Assembly: GCF_055900595.2 (NCBI RefSeq)
Contig: NZ_CM148325.1
Strand: one strand, 5' to 3'
Length of the DNA: 64,000 nt
Positions within the stretch are counted from its first letter, which is position 1. Each line of letters begins with the position of its first letter. Below are positions 45,846 to 57,038 of the stretch, piece by piece. The notes under the pieces were generated by a model, which did not search any database, was not told the DNA's origin, and saw nothing but the letters and a program-made list of their open reading frames with translations. A program made the translations under genes and the position numbers.

Positions 45846-47516
45846 ATGGATAATGCAGAACTCGCCATTGGTATCGATCTCGGTACTACCAATAGTTTAA
45901 TTGCCGTCTGGAAAGACGGTGCCGCGCAATTAATTCCAAATAAGTTCGGTGAATATTTAACACCATCCATAATTAGCATGGATGAAAATAATCATATTTT
46001 AGTCGGAAAACCCGCTGTATCACGGCGCACTTCGCATCCGGATAAAACGGCAGCGTTATTTAAACGTGCAATGGGCAGTAATACCAACTGGCGGTTAGGC
46101 AGCGACACATTTAACGCGCCTGAACTGTCCTCTTTGGTATTACGCTCATTAAAAGAAGATGCCGAAGAATTTCTGCAACGTCCGATTAAAGATGTGGTGA
46201 TCTCCGTTCCGGCTTATTTCAGCGATGAACAACGCAAGCATACCCGTTTAGCAGCGGAGTTAGCCGGGTTAAATGCGGTACGCTTAATTAATGAACCCAC
46301 AGCAGCTGCGATGGCATATGGCCTGCATACGCAACAAAATACCCGCTCGCTGGTTTTTGATCTCGGTGGCGGCACGTTTGACGTCACGGTGCTCGAATAC
46401 GCCACGCCGGTGATTGAAGTTCACGCCTCCGCTGGCGACAACTTTCTTGGCGGCGAAGATTTTACTCATATGCTGGTGGATGAAGTTTTAAAACGCGCCG
46501 CAGTGGCTAAAAACATGCTCAACGAAAGTGAGCTGGCAGCCCTGTACACCAGCGTGGAAGCGGCAAAATGCAGCAATCAATTACCGCTGCAAATTAGCTG
46601 GCAGTATCAGGAAGAAACGCGTGAGTGCGAATTTTACGAGAACGAACTGGAAGATTTGTGGTTGCCGCTGCTCAATCGCTTGCGAGTGCCGATTGAACAG
46701 GCGTTGCGCGATGCACGTCTGAAGCCAAGTCAAATCGACAGTCTGGTGCTGGTTGGCGGCGCATCACAAATGCCGCTGGTGCAGCGAATCGCCGTGCGTC
46801 TGTTTGGCAAATTACCGTATCAAAGTTACGACCCGAGTACTATTGTCGCGCTGGGCGCAGCGATCCAGGCCGCCTGCCGCTTACGCAGCGAAGACATTGA
46901 AGAAGTGATCCTCACCGATATTTGCCCCTACTCCTTAGGTGTTGAAGTTAACCGCCAGGGCGTTTCCGGCATTTTCTCACCGATTATTGAACGAAACACC
47001 ACTGTACCGGTGTCGCGTGTAGAAACTTACTCGACCATGCACCCGGAACAGGATTCAATTACGGTTAACGTCTATCAGGGAGAAAACCACAAAGTTAAAA
47101 ATAACATTCTGGTAGAATCCTTCGATGTGCCGTTGAAGAAAACCGGGGCTTATCAGTCGATTGATATTCGCTTTAGTTATGATATCAACGGGTTGCTTGA
47201 AGTTGACGTGCTTCTGGAAGACGGCAGCGTTAAGTCCAGAGTCATTAACCACAGTCCTGTAACATTGAGCGCACAGCAGATTGAAGAGAGTCGGACGCGG
47301 TTATCCGCATTGAAAATTTATCCGCGCGATATGCTCATCAACCGCACCTTTAAGGCCAAACTGGAAGAGTTGTGGGCGCGGGCGCTGGGTGACGAGCGAG
47401 AAGAGATCGGCCGGGTGATCACCGATTTTGATGCGGCGTTGCAGTCAAACGATATGGCCCGCGTCGATGAAGTTCGGCGACGGGCGAGCGATTATTTGGC
47501 TATTGAGATCCCTTAA
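45846..47516 (+). CDS. hscC: Hsp70-family chaperone HscC (Hsc62)
   Basis: 556-aa ORF with the Hsp70 N-terminal ATPase signature (IGIDLGTTNS, DLGGGTFD), shorter than DnaK. Confidence 0.93.
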   Translation: MDNAELAIGIDLGTTNSLIAVWKDGAAQLIPNKFGEYLTPSIISMDENNHILVGKPAVSRRTSHPDKTAALFKRAMGSNTNWRLGSDTFNAPELSSLVLRSLKEDAEEFLQRPIKDVVISVPAYFSDEQRKHTRLAAELAGLNAVRLINEPTAAAMAYGLHTQQNTRSLVFDLGGGTFDVTVLEYATPVIEVHASAGDNFLGGEDFTHMLVDEVLKRAAVAKNMLNESELAALYTSVEAAKCSNQLPLQISWQYQEETRECEFYENELEDLWLPLLNRLRVPIEQALRDARLKPSQIDSLVLVGGASQMPLVQRIAVRLFGKLPYQSYDPSTIVALGAAIQAACRLRSEDIEEVILTDICPYSLGVEVNRQGVSGIFSPIIERNTTVPVSRVETYSTMHPEQDSITVNVYQGENHKVKNNILVESFDVPLKKTGAYQSIDIRFSYDINGLLEVDVLLEDGSVKSRVINHSPVTLSAQQIEESRTRLSALKIYPRDMLINRTFKAKLEELWARALGDEREEIGRVITDFDAALQSNDMARVDEVRRRASDYLAIEIP

Positions 47517-47575
47517 ACACGGCTGCCGGATGCGGCATAAACGCTGCATTCGGCATCGGCGCAAAAAACACATCC

Positions 47576-49027
47576 TCAGCTAAACAACATCGCGATTTTT
47601 CCGAGAGCATAACCTATCACCAGCACCGTTAAGCTGATTTTGATAATGCTGGTAATGCTCTGTGGTTTTTCATCCTCATCATTTTTTTCTTCGTGGTTTT
47701 CAGGTGTTGGCTCATCGACATCTTCATCCTCCGGCTCGAGTTTCACTTTCGTCAACAGCATCCGCGTGATAATGGCCTCTAATGGATGAGCATCTCCACC
47801 TTCCAGCCTTGTATTAAGACGGGCCAGCATCTCTTGTTTCGGGAACGCTTCCAGCACAACCTGTTCCGCTACCCGATACAAATCCAGTAACGGTGAATCT
47901 TGTTCTGTCTCGCTACCGACTCTCGATTTCCACCATGCCCATGTTTTGCGCTTGAAGAATAACGACTCAATAAACGATTGACCTAACGGCGATAATTTTC
48001 CGCTATGTAAAATTTCCGCCCATAACAGCCTCGTCCGGGCGCTCTCACCAGGAACATATTTCAGCGGCTTACCTTGCGCATCAACCATGCTTCGCGCTTC
48101 GATAACCATCACTAACAGCGCGAAGTAATCCGGGCAATGTTGCGCACTCCACTGCAGTAATAAATTATCGGCTTGTGTAGATGGATAACTTTCCCAGTAA
48201 CCACAGAGATCGGCAAGCATGCTTTCACCCTCGCCGCAGTATAACCGTTGCGCACACTGGTAATATCGGGCATCTTCACTTTCTGGTTCTTCCGTTTGCC
48301 ACTGTTGCGCTACAGAAATGAGTTCCGCCATACCTGTTTGCACCGAGCTATACCAGCGCAACAATTTGCGATGCAACTTCGCATCATCGGGAATGAACCA
48401 CGGACCTTCCATCGCCAAAAACGCAGTGACATAGTCAGGGTGATAACGGCAGCAGCGTTCCAATGCGAAGTAATACTCAACAGTCTGGTTCTGCAACGCG
48501 ACGGGATATTCCAGAAGGCTTAGAAAATCGAAACAATCCCCGGCCTGAATGGCCTCAAGAAAAGCCTCCCGTTCTTCCTCGTCCATGCCTTCACTTTCAT
48601 TAAATGAATGCCAGTTCAAACGCTCTGCCAGCAAAGAAGCACAATTTAATGAAAGATATCGCGCTTCTGTAGCGATTGCACACAGCGGCCAGCGTAATTG
48701 ATCGACATCCTCCATGTTCCAGGTATTTAATTGCTGAATAAATTTCTGCCAGGCGGAGGGCTGAAAACGATCGCTTTCCGAAGCCAGTAAGGTTCTGAAC
48801 GCTTTCAGTGCTTCGTGCTCTTCTGCAAGATTTTTCTCGTCATCAGCATTTTTTTCGTCCGGATTGACAGCCAGTCGCAGCGCCTCTTCATAGGCCTGGC
48901 GTAATGCTTTAAACCCCTGCGGATCGGTTTCGGGATGACACAACGGTAAGCGAGCAAGATAAGCCTGGCGGATACTGTCTATTTGCGTCGTGCTTTCAAT
49001 TTCGAGGATTTGCCAACATGTTTTCAT
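47576..49027 (-). CDS. djlC: J-domain-like co-chaperone DjlC (YbeV), C-terminally membrane-anchored
   Basis: 483-aa ORF with an N-terminal J-like region (…[11 protein letters not shown]…) and a C-terminal hydrophobic helix ([17 protein letters not shown]); paralogous to the ORF at 50396-51823. Confidence 0.85.
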
Positions 49028-49731
49028 AGGTCGCTCACATCCTTAAGCGTTACCGGGCATTCAGGCTGGACAATTAATGGCTGCCAGGGAAGCGTGGCAT
49101 AGAAACGATCGCTTCCCGCTGCCAACTCCTCGAACATCCGACTCCCGGCGTTATCGTATTTGTACAGGGTTAGCGCCTCGCGTAGCGAAGCGTTGTCTTC
49201 ACACTGGGAAGATTGCCAGTAGAGACGTCCTAATGAATAGGCGGCAAAATAGTGAATCCAGCTGTGATAATAATGGTGAGCTCGTACATAAACGCGCGAT
49301 TGCAGCCATAAACTCTCTTCTTCCGTCAGCCAATTGTTGAGCACACCGACCCGCGATAAAAACCCCATCCGCACATAATCCCAGGCTTTGATTCCCCCTT
49401 CCCCACAACACATAGCGGTTTGGGCAACGAATTGGGTATAAATCAACCCTCTCTCCGAGCCGCCAGCAATTAATGTTTTCCACTCTTCAGGGGAAGAGCG
49501 ATGCCATGTCAGATATAAGCCAGCTAAATCATTGGCATGACCATCATCGGTCATCTGATAAATAGTCTGAATTAAATCATCACGATTATTTATTCCCCAG
49601 GATGATGAGAGATCGAATTCTTTTATCCCAGTATACATTTTTGGCGAGTCATGCGCTGGCTTGCAACCCTGATTAAGTATTTCCATGGGTGCAGAAAGCG
49701 CAAAAAGAAGATATTGTTCTTCCTTATTCAT
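49024..49731 (-). CDS. ybeU: DUF1266-type protein YbeU
   Basis: 235-aa ORF whose stop overlaps the djlC start (ATGA at 49024-49027); paralogous to the ORF at 51820-52563. The DUF1266 label is from memory. Confidence 0.8.
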
Positions 49732-49831
49732 TTGTTAATAATCCCTTAAGTGCATTAACTGACTACTTTTTTATTATCGATGAGTATAAACTTGACGTTT
49801 TCAAAATAAAAGAAAATAGAAGTATTCATGC

Positions 49832-50386
49832 ATGAATAAAAAATTAATATATATATTCGCAATATTTATAGTTGCGGCAATTACCTGTATTAGCCAACCC
49901 AACAAAACGACCCTGCGCGATAAAGCTATGGCGAATTATGTCTTTGATTATTTAAGCTCACCGGGCAGTCTTCCGTTTACCACGGCAGCAACAGAGCTTT
50001 CCGCCATTCATGGTCACTCAACGTCGCAATATAGACTTGGCGAATTTTATCTTCATGGTAGCGATGGTAAGCCTCTGGATTATACAAAGGCGAGATACTG
50101 GTATGAGCAATCAGCGGAACAGGAAAATCCACGCGCGCAAAGTCAACTGGGATGGATCTACCTGAAAGGTTTGGGAGTCAATCCCGATACCCGTAAAGCA
50201 ATTCTCTGGCATAAGGAAGCAGCTGAACAAGGGCATGTTCATGCACAATACACGTTGGGTTTGATCTACAGAAACGGCACGGGCATTAGCACCAACAATT
50301 ATGAAGCTCGCAAATGGTTAGAACTGGCGGCAGAGCAACATTATAAAAATGCGGAAAGATTACTTGCAGAGCTTCCCGCACATTAA
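49832..50386 (+). CDS. ybeT: Sel1-repeat (TPR-like) exported protein YbeT
   Basis: 184-aa ORF with an N-terminal hydrophobic segment and repeated Sel1 units (A-x-S/Q-Q-x-xLG-x-x-Y-x-x-G-x-G-V). Confidence 0.8.
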
Positions 50387-50395
50387 CGTCGACTT

Positions 50396-51823
50396 TCACC
50401 CGAACAGATGAAGTATTTTCCCTATCAAACCGGCAAAGATAAAAATATAGAAAATAATTTTAATGATGCCCAGACAGCCCGGCCCACCATCGTCAACGGG
50501 CATTGGCTGCGGTTGCGGCTCCGGCTTGACGGTTTGTTGCCCGGCAAAATTCGCCGACTGAATTAATAATCGTCGAATTATTAATGCGTCCAGAGGACAA
50601 CGATCTTCTGCATCAAGGCGGGCGACGATCGGCATCAATGATTCTTCTGTCGGTTGGCTGGTCTTCACTAATTGTTTAGCAACTAAATATAATGGCCATA
50701 AGGGATGTTCTGTATCACGCGTGAGTGAGATTCGCGGCTTACGCCCTTTGTGCAAAACCATCTCAACCAGAGAACGCCCCAGCGCAGAGAGTTTCTCATC
50801 GCTGAGTATTTCGTATAATTGAAAGCGCGTACGCGCACTGTCGCCAGGAACATAAAGTAACGGTTTCCCCTGATCGTTAACCAGTTCACGTGCTTCAATC
50901 ATCATCACGACTAACGGGTAATAATCGACCCGATGCTGACGGCACCATTGCAACATTAATACATCTGCCTGGGTCGAGGGAGACTCGCGCCAGAAGTCAC
51001 AAAGTTCTGCCAGCAAGCTTTCGCCTTCTCCACAATAGACGCGTTGCGCGTATTCATAATAACGCGCATCTTCATTATCAGGTTCAGTTTCCCGCCATGA
51101 CCGGGCGTAGTCCAGGAGTTCGGGTATTCCCAGGCGGACTGCGCTATACCAGCACAGTAAATTTCTGTGCAGTTTTACATCATCGGGGATAATTACCGCA
51201 CGATGTTGCGATAAATATAATGTCAGCCATTCTGGATGCGATGACCAAATCCGCGCGAACATTTGGTAAAAATCAATGGTTTCATTTTGCACGGCAACAG
51301 GCAGATGCAGAATGGTCTGGAAGTTAAAAACATTCCCCTTCGCAATGGCATATAAAAAGGATTCCAGTTCTTCTTCGTCTATTTCCCCGGTGTTTTCCTC
51401 CTGTCGCCACCGCAATCTTTCTGCTAATAAAGCCACGCACTCGAAGGATAAATGGGCAGTGTTCATGGCTATTGTGCACAGTGACCAGCGTAATTCATCA
51501 ATATCTTCCATCGAGCAATAATTTAATTGCTGAATGAATCGCTGCCAGGCAGAGGGCAGAAAACGTTCGCTATCAGAGGCGAGTAACGCACGAAAGGCGA
51601 ACAGTATTTCATGTTCTGCAACTTCATGTTCTTCTGGTTGCCAAACAGATTTAGCAGGCGACTGCGCAATCCGTAGCGCGTCCTCATACGCCTGACGAAG
51701 TTGTTTAAAACCCTGCGGATCGGTTTCTGGATGAAAGGACGGTAACAGCGCCAGATAAGCGCGGCGGATAATATCGACTTCAGTCGTTTCCTCTATTTCG
51801 AGAATCTTCCAGCAATTTTTCAT
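50396..51823 (-). CDS. djlB: J-domain-like co-chaperone DjlB (YbeS), C-terminally membrane-anchored
   Basis: 475-aa ORF, N-terminus [39 protein letters not shown] closely parallels DjlC; C-terminal hydrophobic tail. Confidence 0.85.
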
Positions 51824-52563
51824 AGGTCGCTCATATCCTTAAGCGTTTCCGGGCATGCAGAATAGTAAGCCAATGGTTGCCAGGACAAGGTAGGGTAATA
51901 CGCATCATCACTGGCAAATAATTGATAAAACATATCATTGCCGGAATCGTCGTATTCTTTACGCGCTAAAAATTCACGTAATAACTGAAGATTATCATCT
52001 TCGGGAGACTGCCAATATTGCCGACCAAAGGTATAACCGGCAAAGTATTGCTGCCAGTTACTATAATAACGTAGCGCCCGTAGATGAATGCGCGACTGGA
52101 TCCATAGACTTTCTTCTTCGCTCAACCAGTTATTAAGTACGCCCATTCGGCTTAAAAAACCCATCCGGACATAATCCCAGGCTTTGATTCCCCCTTCGCC
52201 ACAGCATTCGGCGGTGCTGGCGACAAATTGCGCATAAGCCTGACCTTGCTCATTTAGTTCAGCAAGATAATCACGCCATTCACATGGAGAATAACGAAAC
52301 CAGCGGTGATAAAGCCCTGCCAACCGAGCGGCATGACCGTTATCGATCATTCGGTGAATTGTACGCAGCAGGTCATCACGGTCATCAATTCCCCATGAGG
52401 AAGAAAGGTCAAAAAAGCATGTACCTAAATACATTTTGGGGGATGAATGCGAAGGTAAACAGCATTCATTGCGTATTTCCATCGGAGTGGAAAGTGCAAA
52501 CAATATTTTTTGCGACTCCATGTCCATATAATTTATCCTTAAACATTCATTTAATGAATACAA
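51820..52563 (-). CDS. ybeR: DUF1266-type protein YbeR
   Basis: ORF of 247 codons (true start may be an internal Met, e.g. [11 protein letters not shown]); its stop overlaps the djlB start; paralog of YbeU. Confidence 0.8.
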
Positions 52564-52684
52564 ACTACATTGCGAGACTCAGTTATTTATACTTTTCTGA
52601 CGCAACATAATACGCATAAAATAAGGCTTACGCAAAAATGGAATACATAAAAATATAATATGTTTTATCTACAACCATAAGGAA

Positions 52685-53668
52685 ATGATAATGATTTTTA
52701 CGTCAAGTTGCTGCGATAATTTATCAATAGATGAGATTATCGAACGTGCTGAAAAAGGCGATTGCGAGGCTCAATATATTGTTGGGTTTTATTATAATCG
52801 CGATAGCGCAATTGACTCTCCGGACGACGAAAAGGCCTTTTACTGGCTGAAGCTGGCCGCTGAGCAAGGTCATTGTGAAGCACAATATTCCTTAGGGCAA
52901 AAGTATACCGAGGATAAAAGCCGTCATAAAGATAATGGGCAAGCCATCTTTTGGCTGAAAAAAGCTGCCCTACAAGGCCATACTTTCGCTTCCAACGCCC
53001 TTGGCTGGATACTGGATCGTGGAGAAGACCCCAACTATAAAGAAGCGGTTGCCTGGTATCAGATAGCCGCGGAGAGCGGAATGTCTTATGCGCAAAATAA
53101 TCTTGGGTGGATGTACAGAAATGGCAACGGAGTCACACAAGATTATGCGCTGGCATTTTTCTGGTACAAACAAGCTGCATTGCAAGGCCATAGTTACGCA
53201 CAAGACAATCTGGCCGATCTTTATGAAGACGGTAAAGGTGTTGCCCAAAACAAAGCTCTTGCCGCATTCTGGTATTTGAAAAGCGCACAGCAAGGTAATC
53301 GGCACGCTCAATTTCAAATTGCGTGGGATTATAACGCTGGCGAAGGGGTTGACCAGGACTATAAGCAAGCAATGTACTGGTATCTGAAGGCTGCCGCTCA
53401 GGAAAGCGTCGGCGCTTACGTTAACATCGGCTATATGTATAAACACGGTCAAGGCGTTGAGAAGGATTATCAGGCCGCCTTTGAATGGTTTACGAAAGCC
53501 GCTGAATGCGATAATGCCACTGCCTGGTATAACCTTGCCATTATGTATCATTACGGAGAAGGAAGACCTGTCGATCTCCGACAGGCTCTCGATCTGTATC
53601 GTAAAGTTCAGTCATCCGGTACCAGGGATGTCAGTCAAAAAATCCGTGAGATTGAAGATTTACTGTAG
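52685..53668 (+). CDS. ybeQ: Sel1-repeat protein YbeQ
   Basis: 327-codon ORF with about eight consecutive Sel1-type repeats (…A-x-x-W-Y-x-K-A-A-x-Q-G…). Confidence 0.85.
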   Translation: MIMIFTSSCCDNLSIDEIIERAEKGDCEAQYIVGFYYNRDSAIDSPDDEKAFYWLKLAAEQGHCEAQYSLGQKYTEDKSRHKDNGQAIFWLKKAALQGHTFASNALGWILDRGEDPNYKEAVAWYQIAAESGMSYAQNNLGWMYRNGNGVTQDYALAFFWYKQAALQGHSYAQDNLADLYEDGKGVAQNKALAAFWYLKSAQQGNRHAQFQIAWDYNAGEGVDQDYKQAMYWYLKAAAQESVGAYVNIGYMYKHGQGVEKDYQAAFEWFTKAAECDNATAWYNLAIMYHYGEGRPVDLRQALDLYRKVQSSGTRDVSQKIREIEDLL

Positions 53669-54220: not shown

Positions 54221-54455
54221 CGTTTCATCTCCCGGGTCGTTAACTGACTATAATAATAGACGTTCTTTGTTCCTTGCTTTGCTATTACGCCCACAAACTC
54301 TGTAAATTAATGTATGAATAATCCGGGCATCATTTCAACGTCGAGTGCGCGAAAGGCTGTTTTGACGCGGACGTTTGGGCTATGCTATGCGGATCTGAAA
54401 AACCACCTCTAACGCTACTTTTGTAGCCGTATTGAAAACAGGACCACTGGCTGCC

Positions 54456-57038
54456 ATGCAAGAGCAATACCGCCCGGAAGAGATAGAATCCAAAGTACAG
54501 CTTCATTGGGATGAGAAGCGCACATTTGAAGTAACAGAAGACGAGAGCAAAGAGAAGTATTACTGCCTGTCTATGCTTCCCTATCCTTCTGGTCGACTAC
54601 ACATGGGCCACGTACGTAACTACACCATCGGTGACGTGATCGCCCGTTACCAGCGCATGCTGGGCAAAAACGTTCTGCAGCCGATCGGCTGGGACGCGTT
54701 TGGTCTGCCTGCGGAAGGCGCAGCGGTGAAAAATAACACCGCGCCAGCACCGTGGACGTACGACAACATCGCGTACATGAAAAACCAGCTCAAAATGCTG
54801 GGCTTTGGTTATGACTGGAGCCGCGAGCTGGCAACCTGTACACCGGAATACTACCGTTGGGAACAGAAATTCTTCACCGAGCTGTATAAAAAAGGCCTGG
54901 TATATAAGAAGACTTCTGCGGTCAACTGGTGCCCGAACGACCAGACCGTACTGGCGAACGAACAGGTTATCGACGGCTGCTGCTGGCGCTGCGATACCAA
55001 AGTTGAGCGTAAAGAGATCCCGCAGTGGTTTATCAAAATCACCGCTTACGCTGACGAGCTGCTCAACGATCTGGATAAACTGGATCACTGGCCAGACACC
55101 GTTAAAACCATGCAGCGTAACTGGATCGGTCGTTCCGAAGGAGTGGAAATCACCTTCAACGTTAACGACTATGACAACACGCTGACCGTTTACACTACCC
55201 GCCCGGACACCTTTATGGGTTGTACCTACCTGGCGGTAGCGGCAGGTCATCCGCTGGCACAGAAAGCGGCGGAAAATAATCCTGAACTGGCCGCCTTTAT
55301 TGACGAATGCCGTAACACCAAAGTTGCCGAAGCTGAAATGGCGACGATGGAGAAAAAAGGCGTCGATACTGGCTTTAAAGCGGTTCACCCATTAACGGGC
55401 GAAGAAATTCCGGTTTGGGCAGCAAACTTCGTATTGATGGAATATGGCACCGGCGCAGTCATGGCGGTTCCGGGTCACGATCAGCGCGACTACGAGTTTG
55501 CCTCTAAATACGGCCTGAATATCAAGCCGGTTATCCTGGCAGCTGACGGCTCTGAGCCAGATCTTTCTCAGCAAGCCCTGACCGAAAAAGGCGTGCTGTT
55601 CAACTCTGGCGAGTTCAACGGCCTTGATCATGAAGCAGCCTTCAACGCCATCGCCGATAAACTGACTGCGATGGGTGTTGGCGAGCGTAAAGTGAACTAC
55701 CGCCTGCGCGACTGGGGTGTTTCCCGTCAACGTTACTGGGGCGCGCCGATTCCGATGGTGACGCTGGAAGACGGTACTGTAATGCCGACCCCGGACGACC
55801 AACTGCCGGTGATCCTGCCGGAAGATGTGGTGATGGACGGCATTACCAGCCCAATCAAAGCTGATCCTGAGTGGGCGAAAACCACCGTTAACGGTATGCC
55901 TGCGCTGCGTGAAACCGATACTTTCGACACCTTTATGGAGTCCTCCTGGTACTATGCGCGCTACACTTGCCCTGAGTACAAAGAAGGTATGCTGGATTCC
56001 GAAGCGGCCAACTACTGGCTGCCGGTGGATATCTACATTGGTGGTATCGAACACGCCATTATGCACCTGCTCTACTTCCGCTTCTTCCATAAACTGATGC
56101 GTGATGCAGGCATGGTGAACTCTGACGAACCAGCAAAACAGTTGCTGTGTCAGGGTATGGTGCTGGCGGATGCCTTCTACTATGTTGGCGAAAACGGCGA
56201 GCGTAACTGGGTTTCCCCAGTTGATGCTATCGTTGAACGTGACGAGAAAGGCCGTATCGTGAAAGCGAAAGATGCGGCAGGCCATGAACTGGTTTATACC
56301 GGCATGAGCAAAATGTCTAAGTCGAAGAACAACGGTATCGACCCACAGGTGATGGTTGAACGTTACGGCGCGGACACCGTTCGTCTGTTTATGATGTTTG
56401 CTTCTCCGGCGGATATGACTCTCGAATGGCAGGAGTCTGGCGTGGAAGGGGCTAACCGCTTCCTGAAACGTGTCTGGAAACTGGTTTACGAGCACACTGC
56501 AAAAGGTGATGTTGCAGCACTGAATGTCGACGCGTTGACTGAAGATCAGAAAGCACTGCGTCGCGATGTTCATAAAACTATCGCTAAAGTGACCGATGAT
56601 ATCGGCCGTCGTCAGACCTTCAACACCGCGATTGCGGCAATTATGGAGCTGATGAACAAACTGGCGAAAGCACCGACCGATGGCGAGCAGGATCGCGCCC
56701 TGATGCAGGAAGCGCTGCTGGCGGTAGTCCGTATGCTTAACCCGTTCACCCCGCACATCTGCTTCACGCTGTGGCAGGAACTGAAAGGCGAAGGCGATAT
56801 CGACAACGCGCCGTGGCCGGTTGCTGACGAAAAAGCGATGGTGGAAGACTCCACCCTGGTGGTGGTGCAGGTTAACGGTAAAGTCCGTGCCAAAATCACT
56901 GTTCCGGTGGACGCAACGGAAGAACAGGTTCGCGAACGTGCTGGTCAGGAACATCTGGTAGCAAAATATCTTGATGGCGTTACCGTGCGTAAAGTGATTT
57001 ACGTACCGGGTAAACTCCTCAATCTGGTCGTTGGCTAA
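54456..57038 (+). CDS. leuS: Leucyl-tRNA synthetase
   Basis: ORF 54432-57038; start placed at [15 protein letters not shown] (860 aa); HIGH-type motif (HMGHVRN) and KMSKS (KMSKSK). Confidence 0.98.

Follow-up and report, generated by a model that had tools for sequence, protein, structure and literature searches.

HPE in place of HPD in the J-domains of the HscC partners DjlC and DjlB

We found that both J-proteins encoded next to hscC in the window, the 64,000-nucleotide stretch of contig NZ_CM148325.1 (RefSeq assembly GCF_055900595.2) that was analysed as a whole, carry the triad His-Pro-Glu (HPE) at the position of the canonical His-Pro-Asp (HPD) of J-domains. DjlC and DjlB are probably tail-anchored inner-membrane class C J-proteins, with HPE as a functional variant of the motif and a distributed, co-adapted interface that is orthogonal to DnaK/DnaJ. 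The presence of HPE in these proteins is already published and is a lineage-wide signature of HscC partners, not a new feature: DjlB and DjlC are named as HPE J-domains in PNAS 2023 (PMC10410713), where such domains account for roughly 1 % of J-domains (2,921 sequences) with DjlB/DjlC as examples, and in a 2026 review (PMC13254874), which describes HPE as the sole tolerated replacement of HPD.

The hscC-djlC-djlB locus

The djlC gene (ybeV; 47576-49027, minus strand, 483 aa) is supported by the open reading frame list and by the RefSeq annotation of its E. coli counterpart, and its paralogue djlB (ybeS; 50396-51823, minus strand, 475 aa) shares 49 % identity with it. The partner of DjlC, the specialised Hsp70 HscC (556 aa; Pfam HSP70 5.9e-117, RefSeq annotation), is encoded at 45846-47516 on the plus strand, convergent with djlC across a 59-bp gap. 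The start of djlC overlaps by 4 nt the stop of ybeU (49024-49731, minus strand), which encodes a DUF1266 protein (Pfam PF06889 2.3e-44), and the djlC module also includes the Sel1-repeat gene ybeT (49832-50386, plus strand; Pfam Sel1 1.5e-32). The djlB start likewise overlaps by 4 nt the stop of a DUF1266 gene, ybeR (51820-52527, minus strand), given here in its RefSeq-length version starting at 52527, the longest open reading frame having a TTG start and reaching 52563; the Sel1-repeat gene of the djlB module is ybeQ (52685-53668, plus strand; Pfam Sel1 9.6e-63). A DUF1266 gene immediately upstream was also observed in two distant loci (L003 and L009). A PADLOC scan of the locus for defence systems returned nothing meaningful.

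Upon comparison with E. coli, we observe 96 % identity to the window over 5.5 kb, with the RefSeq gene order hscC, djlC, ybeU, ybeT, djlB, ybeR, ybeQ and with the products given as co-chaperone DjlC for djlC and J domain-containing protein for djlB. Both genes are orthologous to and syntenic with E. coli djlC and djlB beside hscC, and the annotation of hscC, djlC and djlB in the window is correct. Genes, synteny and HPE triad are all identical in kind to those of the K-12 HscC co-chaperones DjlC (YbeV) and DjlB (YbeS), without substantive difference, the window copy being a somewhat divergent allele: DNA identity to E. coli is 90-96 % at this locus versus 95-99.5 % in the neighbouring leuS, and against the large E. 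coli protein clusters the window DjlC reaches 93 % identity, the paralogue about 50 %.

The triad within a J-domain fold

The earlier note had claimed that both paralogues read H-P-E, and translations and codons confirm this. In DjlC, H31-P32-E33 is encoded by CAT CCC GAA (48929-48937, minus strand) and in DjlB by CAT CCA GAA (51725-51733, minus strand), the glutamate codon being GAA in both (48929-48931 and 51725-51727, minus strand). That the triad occupies the HPD position, as the note also held, is agreed on by Pfam coordinates, phmmer against the PDB, MAFFT and HHalign, and the alignment against PF00226 that it had proposed for finding the HPD-equivalent tripeptide gives H31-P32-E33. Residues 4-47 of DjlC and DjlB match profile positions 2-51 of PF00226, which makes a register shift impossible; phmmer places hpEtdP opposite HPDKNP of DNAJB2; MAFFT with E. 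coli DnaJ sets H31-P32-E33 on H33-P34-D35; and HHalign, run with the family profile on the J-domain of DnaJ (probability 91.7 %, E 7.8e-7, DjlC 3-48 on DnaJ 5-56), yields the same register. Neither protein has a canonical His-Pro-Asp in the loop between helices II and III.

The sole canonical HPD, at DjlC residues 196-198 (48434-48442, minus strand), is a decoy in the helical body. We rejected it as the true J-motif, with no second Pfam DnaJ stretch found there. In the AF2 model it lies at the junction of helices 176-195 and 197-205 of the TPR-like body, and it is poorly conserved (H in 10/21, P in 17/21 and D in 1/21), with DjlB reading HPE at the same place. The J-domain reading thus withstands the refutation set for it in advance, namely that a canonical HPD elsewhere would prove to be the real motif, the tripeptide at 196-198 being both outside the J-domain and unconserved.

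The J-domain spans residues 1-54 in DjlC (48866-49027, minus strand; Pfam PF00226, HHalign, AF2 and Foldseek) and in DjlB (51662-51823, minus strand; PF00226 and MAFFT with DnaJ). With 20.8 bits for DjlC and 21.1 for DjlB, the Pfam scores fall short of the gathering threshold of 27.8 bits, which distant relatives with the HPE signature exceed (P0142 29.9 bits, P0230 33.6 bits). The predicted elements in DjlC are helix I (4-8), helix II (16-29, ending at 26 or 29 in AF2), the triad loop (30-35) and helix III (36-54), and the AF2 model of residues 1-75 has a pLDDT near 90 across helices I-III, with a predicted helix II-loop-helix III hairpin against which helix I packs; no clear helix IV appears in the AF2 models of full-length DjlC or of its N-terminus. 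When the N-terminal model was searched against the PDB with Foldseek, almost all of the best 50 matches were J-domains (probability 0.97-1.00), including 5nro_B, a J-domain bound to DnaK (TMt 0.67, rmsd 2.4 A); the small size of the domain keeps the E-values weak (0.09-1). The HHalign probability and this predicted fold, matching solved J-domains, support the identification of the N-terminal region as a J-domain.

Full-length DjlC is modelled (AF2 pLDDT 79.6) as an N-terminal J-domain, an all-alpha TPR-like body and a C-terminal tail-anchor helix; a fold search with this model gave weak TPR-like matches alone (best E 0.03) and was uninformative for the J-domain. Nearly all homologues have a precomputed DjlB_C_2nd domain (PF27158), and DjlC and DjlB of the window align with them over their full length. 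The hydrophobic C-terminal helix of DjlC (residues 458-482; 47582-47656, minus strand) is a predicted tail anchor from the AF2 model, and inspection of the C-terminal residues of DjlB suggests the same. According to PMC8215388, which cites Peschke 2018, DjlC inserts into the membrane.

Conservation of HPE and triads at HscC-type loci

The earlier note had taken HPE to be a fixed feature and not a sequencing artefact. All 113 enterobacterial homologue clusters whose N-terminus is intact carry it, among them clusters of >10,000 E. coli member sequences, and it is therefore neither chance nor error. In a profile search HPE was found in 107 of the best 150 of 6469 relatives, and no HPD was seen at the triad site among those 150. 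The extended signature is HPE-x-DP-x-GF, against H-P-D-(K/R)-N in the canonical loop, with a post-triad loop 6 residues shorter than in DnaJ; both family alignments show H31, P32, E33, D35, P36 and G38 without variation, and the enterobacterial alignment adds Q37 and F39 to these. The origin of HPE long predates the duplication that gave DjlB and DjlC.

Distant relatives were found beside an Hsp70 of 559-567 aa in 5/6 cases, these Hsp70s being 45-53 % identical to HscC versus 34-37 % to DnaK and sharing the HscC indels. For a reverse sample, we took at least 119 loci picked by one HscC-linker DNA motif, which is not a random draw. A J-like gene is present at 83 of the 119 HscC-type loci listed, and in 84/86 Hsp70/J-like pairs among them the genes are <=300 bp apart. 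The triads at the listed loci are HPE (39), NPE (27), RPD (13), RPE (2), SPE (1) and odd forms (6), with an acidic third position throughout and 0 HPD among the J-like genes of the 119 loci; as a control, phmmer with the canonical J-domain of DnaJ added no further J-domains there. Positions 1 and 3 appear to vary jointly ([H/N/S]PE versus RPD), and the RPD partners carry their aspartate in a loop of the same short length. In some genomes two HscC-type systems coexist and differ in their triad (HPE at L078 with RPD at L079; NPE at L049 with HPE at L050).

It is possible that the HPD rule is relaxed wholesale in HscC-type systems across phyla, with HPE, NPE, RPD, RPE, SPE and even D-x-D in use and HPD never, the constants being an acidic third residue and an Arg or Lys in the Hsp70 at DnaK R167. 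Covariation of the triad type with Hsp70 columns was explored and set aside, the mutual information being dominated by phylogeny and its top columns (DnaK 447, 362, 506 and 418) giving no interpretable contact; R167 is replaced by Lys in 5/9 RPD partners, a sample that is too small. The PMC10410713 survey differs in scope, its set also counting about 1,200 eukaryotic HPE proteins that are unlinked to HscC, such as sodium/calcium-exchanger fusions, and it reports neither a link to HscC-type Hsp70s nor the NPE and RPD forms found in our sample. Our literature search returned no paper reporting the relaxed spectrum, which may be known already.

The HscC interface and the role of the glutamate

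The Hsp70 of the window is of the HscC type, as its alignment to DnaK and to five distant proteins of that type shows: it is short (about 560 aa), lacks DnaK 76-99 and 208-211 and has a V-I-L-T-D linker, the loss of 208-211 and the L-T-D linker core recurring in the 76 tabulated proteins (81 aligned). It is 32 % identical to DnaK, with HscC-specific indels, and the alignment shows R167, N170, T173, E206, E217, Q378, L391 and P419 of DnaK to be kept, whereas D211, D477 and D481 are lost through the 208-211 deletion and the changes D477S and D481N. In DnaK, R167 binds the HPD aspartate and D481 is the intramolecular clamp partner of R167 (PMC8215388), and Q378 provides the aspartate with a second hydrogen bond. 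By alignment, R167 corresponds to HscC R146 (46281-46283, plus strand), R or K in 76/76 tabulated HscC-type Hsp70s; Q378 to Q341 (46866-46868, plus strand), which is Q, Y or A in other HscC-type proteins and Y in 11/29 HPE partners; and D481 to N448 (47187-47189, plus strand), where the charge is neutralised, with N in about 90 % of HscC-type Hsp70s.

We propose that the J-domain docks on HscC in its ATP state, at the place where the nucleotide-binding domain, the linker and the substrate-binding domain meet; there H31 would contact the linker backbone at L356 and P32 would pack against P388. By analogy with 5NRO, the carboxylate of E33 would replace that of DnaJ D35 and engage R146 and probably Q341, and docking would make HscC hydrolyse its ATP and capture clients at the membrane. 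DjlB presumably behaves like DjlC, its stimulation of HscC being assumed by analogy. HPE is probably the ancestral state of the whole J-domain family that co-evolved with HscC-type Hsp70s, and orthogonality to DnaK/DnaJ would arise from combined changes rather than from Asp-to-Glu alone, the other candidates being the 6-residue shorter loop, the loss of D211, D477 and D481 in HscC and, in E. coli, a less basic helix II.

DjlC/DjlB share the helix I-II-loop-III architecture with the canonical J-domains of DnaJ, CbpA and DjlA, in line with the fold match to 5nro_B, and likewise W/Y5, L8, A22-Y23, H31-P32, F39, K/R at 43 and A45-Y46. The differences are glutamate for aspartate, the shorter post-triad loop with its invariant D-P cap, the lack of the KRxxYD/helix IV region and the less basic helix II of the E. 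coli proteins; the DjlC J-domain is, furthermore, non-functional with DnaK and cannot substitute for that of DnaJ (PMC1906734). [quoted passage not shown]

The earlier note had suggested that the substitution may reflect a dedicated, non-promiscuous interface with HscC. A dedicated interface is plausible and agrees with stimulation by DjlC only, with the failed DnaJ swap and with the lack of HPD beside HscC-type Hsp70s; the causal role of Asp-to-Glu was probably overstated, since R167 and Q378 are unchanged in HscC, many other interface residues differ and the RPD subgroup has the same loop. As the RPD subgroup shows, an HscC-type Hsp70 can work with aspartate in that short loop, so glutamate is not an obligatory adaptation to HscC, and the idea that it compensates for the shortened loop is weakened by the same RPD partners.

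A rival reading, which we consider rather doubtful, is that Asp-to-Glu is a neutral, frozen ancestral substitution and that HscC specificity lies wholly elsewhere, in the charges of helices II and III and on the surface of HscC. It draws on the conservative nature of the change, on the retained partners of the aspartate, on the RPD proteins and on the loss in HscC of D211, D477 and D481, which in DnaK bind basic J-domain residues or R167; yet several hundred sequences spread over different phyla all carry the glutamate, even though aspartate is one third-position change away (GAA to GAT/GAC), which argues for selection on glutamate itself in the H/N-P-E context, and the seemingly joint change of triad positions 1 and 3 also speaks against neutrality.

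Another reading is negative design, in which the glutamate mainly stops DjlB/DjlC from activating abundant DnaK at the membrane, that is, insulation and not optimisation for HscC. The failure of the DjlC J-domain to replace that of DnaJ in vivo fits this, as do the genomes with two differently marked HscC-type systems and the cellular levels, DnaK at about 34 uM and HscC below detection (PMC8215388), which would make cross-talk costly; we nevertheless regard it as unlikely, as many other DnaK-contacting residues differ and glutamate is unnecessary to explain the failed swap. Very improbable is a degenerate, type IV J-like domain that binds Hsp70 without activating it, for although the Pfam score is below threshold, helix IV is missing and in relatives even the His or Pro is gone (NPE, RPD, D-x-D), the reading is contradicted for DjlC by the stimulation of HscC summarised from Kluck 2002, the third residue is acidic and the Hsp70 arginine retained in every case, and the tight operon-like linkage to the Hsp70 argues for a working pair. 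The functional HPE variant with a distributed, co-adapted interface remains our preferred reading.

HscB is exclusive for its Hsp70 despite a canonical HPD. This protein (Hsc20) belongs to class C, like DjlC, and serves one Hsp70 exclusively, HscA, which is encoded nearby (PMC8215388, PMC13254874). Type IV J-like proteins without HPD, such as DNAJB13, likewise deviate from the motif (PMC13254874), but they are presumed unable to stimulate Hsp70, in contrast to DjlC, which is active on HscC.

For the window the practical yield is modest, HPE being real and expected here, and what is possibly fresh is only the broader range of triads other than HPD that HscC-type partners carry. The aspartate and histidine of HPD are regarded as essential in every J-domain/Hsp70 pair, DjlB/DjlC being the textbook exception, and the locus is suited both to asking which parts of the motif are required and to studying insulation between Hsp70/J-protein pairs. 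If the non-HPD partners are active, the supposedly indispensable histidine would be dispensable in HscC-type systems, and distinct triads might prevent cross-talk between two HscC systems in one genome.

The HPE triad and its genes

We found that DjlC and DjlB, the paralogous membrane-anchored J-domain co-chaperones encoded beside the specialised Hsp70 HscC, both carry H31-P32-E33 in their ORF translations, and that four independent alignments put this triad on the canonical HPD of the helix II-III loop (H33-P34-D35 in DnaJ). Pfam PF00226 matched residues 4-47 to profile positions 2-51, at about 21 bits for DjlC and DjlB, short of the gathering cut-off of 27.8, phmmer against the PDB set hpEtdP opposite HPDKNP of human DNAJB2, and MAFFT with E. 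coli DnaJ placed both HPE triads opposite HPD. When a profile built from 21 family sequences was compared with the DnaJ J-domain by HHalign, DjlC 3-48 paired with DnaJ 5-56 (probability 91.7 %, E 7.8e-7), with a 6-residue deletion right after the triad. In the AlphaFold2 model of residues 1-75 three helices (4-8, 16-26, 36-54) are predicted, at a pLDDT near 90, and helix IV is not. Almost all of the 50 top-ranked PDB structures that Foldseek returned for this model are J-domains, including chain B of 5NRO, the DnaK-bound J-domain (TMt 0.67, rmsd 2.4 Å). These alignments and the J-like model bear out the earlier note, which had read HPE at the HPD position of both paralogues; the observation is confirmed as real and correctly read. 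The E33 codon is GAA in both genes (minus strand, 48929-48931 in djlC and 51725-51727 in djlB), and an Asp codon would require a third-position transversion.

The sole candidate for a canonical motif elsewhere, the HPD string at DjlC residues 196-198 (RYHPDYV), was rejected, and HPE stands as the J-site triad. Pfam shows no second DnaJ stretch, the full-length model (pLDDT 79.6) places the string where helix 176-195 meets helix 197-205 in an all-alpha TPR-like body, the equivalent DjlB position reads HPE, and the columns are poorly conserved in 21 family members (H 10/21, P 17/21, D 1/21). Residues 55-430, the body of DjlC, are predicted to form a TPR-like solenoid made wholly of alpha helices. 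Its structural matches are all weak (best Foldseek E 0.03), and in distant relatives the same region is fused to long TPR arrays or a DUF805 membrane domain.

The Escherichia hscC neighbourhood occupies 45846-53668, its gene order and names match the E. coli RefSeq annotation, and the top match has 96.2 % identity across 5.5 kb. hscC (45846-47516, plus strand, 556 aa) is followed by djlC/ybeV (47576-49027, minus, 483 aa), ybeU (49024-49731, minus, DUF1266), ybeT (49832-50386, plus, Sel1 repeats), djlB/ybeS (50396-51823, minus, 475 aa), ybeR (from 51820, minus, DUF1266) and ybeQ (52685-53668, plus, Sel1 repeats). We observe in 49024-53668 a tandemly duplicated module of a Sel1-repeat protein, a DUF1266 protein and a tail-anchored J-protein (ybeT/ybeU/djlC and ybeQ/ybeR/djlB), the J-proteins sharing 49 % identity. 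In both copies the DUF1266 gene lies directly upstream of the J-protein gene with a 4-nt ATGA overlap (49024-49027, 51820-51823), and the order recurs at two distant retrieved loci, L003 (5017-5739) and L009 (1172-1885), an arrangement suggesting that translation of the two genes is coupled and that a DUF1266/J-protein partnership has been conserved. The hscC-djlC-djlB segment (47000-52500) has only 90-96 % identity to most E. coli genomes and was found in 4409 of 5426 complete genomes (3691 at coverage >= 80 %); the neighbouring leuS (54432-57038) shows 95-99.5 % identity and was found in 5424. The chaperone locus is an island of divergent sequence that some genomes carry and others lack.

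Conservation of HPE in the family

HPE is present in 113/113 homologue clusters with an intact N-terminus, drawn from Escherichia, Salmonella, Citrobacter, Enterobacter and Pseudocitrobacter and in some cases representing thousands of sequences. H31, P32, E33, D35, P36 and G38 are invariant in both family alignments, as are Q37 and F39 among the enterobacterial proteins. Searching 1.84 billion representatives with a profile returned 6469 relatives at E <= 0.001; among the best 150 of these the J-site reads HPE in 107, NPE, SPE or LPE in a few, and HPD in none. Some relatives are about 900 aa long and carry a DUF805 membrane domain at the C-terminus, others are TPR proteins of 1000-1200 aa, and J-domains of some relatives exceed the Pfam threshold (29.9 and 33.6 bits). 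HPE was thus rightly described as a fixed feature, and its presence in every cluster and in most listed distant relatives makes HPE-x-DP-x-GF an old family signature, one that predates the DjlB/DjlC duplication by far.

J-like genes beside HscC-type Hsp70s

Five of six distant relatives adjoin an Hsp70 of 559-567 aa, and these Hsp70s are 45-53 % identical to HscC, in contrast to 34-37 % to DnaK, and have the HscC deletions (DnaK 76-99, 208-211) and a V-I-L-T-D linker. In a reverse test from the Hsp70 side, designed against HPE bias, a degenerate DNA pattern for the linker L-T-D-[VI]-C-P-[YF]-[ST]-L-G returned at least 120 loci, from Pseudomonas, Xanthomonas, Caulobacter, Sphingomonas, Lachnospiraceae, Erysipelotrichaceae, Paenibacillus, Clostridium, Streptococcus, Treponema and others, with an Hsp70 in 119 of the listed 120. 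Among the matches listed, a J-like ORF lies nearby in 83/119 Hsp70 loci, 84 of 86 Hsp70/J pairs are <= 300 bp apart and 79 same-strand, and most loci lacking a J gene end at the Hsp70. The triads in these matches are HPE (39), NPE (27), RPD (13), RPE (2), SPE (1), D-x-D (3), QHE (1) and a doubtful RLD (1); canonical HPD occurs in none of the listed J-like genes. As a control, the canonical DnaJ J-domain served as phmmer query, and this added no J-domains from the listed loci.

In the same matches, the third triad residue is acidic in all J-like genes adjoining HscC-type Hsp70s, the His is often absent (NPE, RPD, RPE, SPE) and sometimes the Pro too (D-x-D); examples are L014, L020 and L035 for NPE, L017, L033, L041 and L085 for RPD, and L067, L110 and L125 for D-x-D. 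Two pairs with differing triads occur in Pseudomonas sp. B6002 (L078, L079; HPE and RPD) and in Lachnospiraceae UBA7196 (L049, L050; NPE and HPE), which hints that such paired systems are mutually insulated. Short Lachnospiraceae-type J-proteins (L076 12592-13372, L040, L086, L111) read HPEEHP[DEA]EW/F, where HP[DE] recurs four residues after its first occurrence; in L076 (HPEEHPDEW) the aligned HPE is closely followed by a literal HPD.

The Hsp70 interface and its meaning

In 5NRO, as summarised in PMC8215388, DnaJ D35 makes hydrogen bonds to R167 and Q378 of DnaK and H33 a bond to the backbone of L391, P34 packs against P419 and K48 pairs with D477; in the ATP state, D481 acts as a clamp on R167 (PMC8215388). 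By alignment, HscC keeps R167, Q378, L391 and P419 (as R146, Q341, L356 and P388) and the equivalents of N170, T173, E206 and E217, lacks 208-211 including D211, and has S444 for D477 and N448 for D481. Across the 76 of 81 aligned HscC-type proteins tabulated by partner triad, position 167 is R, except that 5 of the 9 Hsp70s paired with RPD domains have K; all lack 208-211 and have T or S for D477, D481 is N in about 90 % and Q378 is variable. The acidic third residue and its arginine thus form the conserved core, with the electrostatics around them rebuilt. Arg stands at 167 in all 53 Hsp70s with an HPE or NPE partner, and the relation of Lys/Arg to partner triad may be covariation or merely shared Gammaproteobacteria ancestry.

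From analogy with the DnaK complex we infer the atomic contacts, E33 among them: it would most likely take over the role of DnaJ D35, engaging HscC R146 and triggering hydrolysis. [quoted passage not shown] E33 itself may be required, may be neutral or may insulate against DnaK. The idea that its extra methylene offsets the shorter loop is weakened by RPD partners, whose loop is the same.

HPE in DjlB and DjlC is already known and ordinary, since a published survey names them as examples among 2,921 HPE J-domains, about 1 % of all (PNAS 2023, PMC10410713). In a 2026 preprint the DjlC-class J-domain/HscC pairing is among the three systems taken as standard for E. coli, and the dedicated HscC interface proposed in the earlier note coincides with the field's working assumption. 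In the searchable literature, which left out key papers, we found no report that HPD is wholly lacking among HscC-type partners, or of how common triads without His (NPE, RPD) are in them, and the non-HPD triads across these partners constitute a modest lead for specialists.
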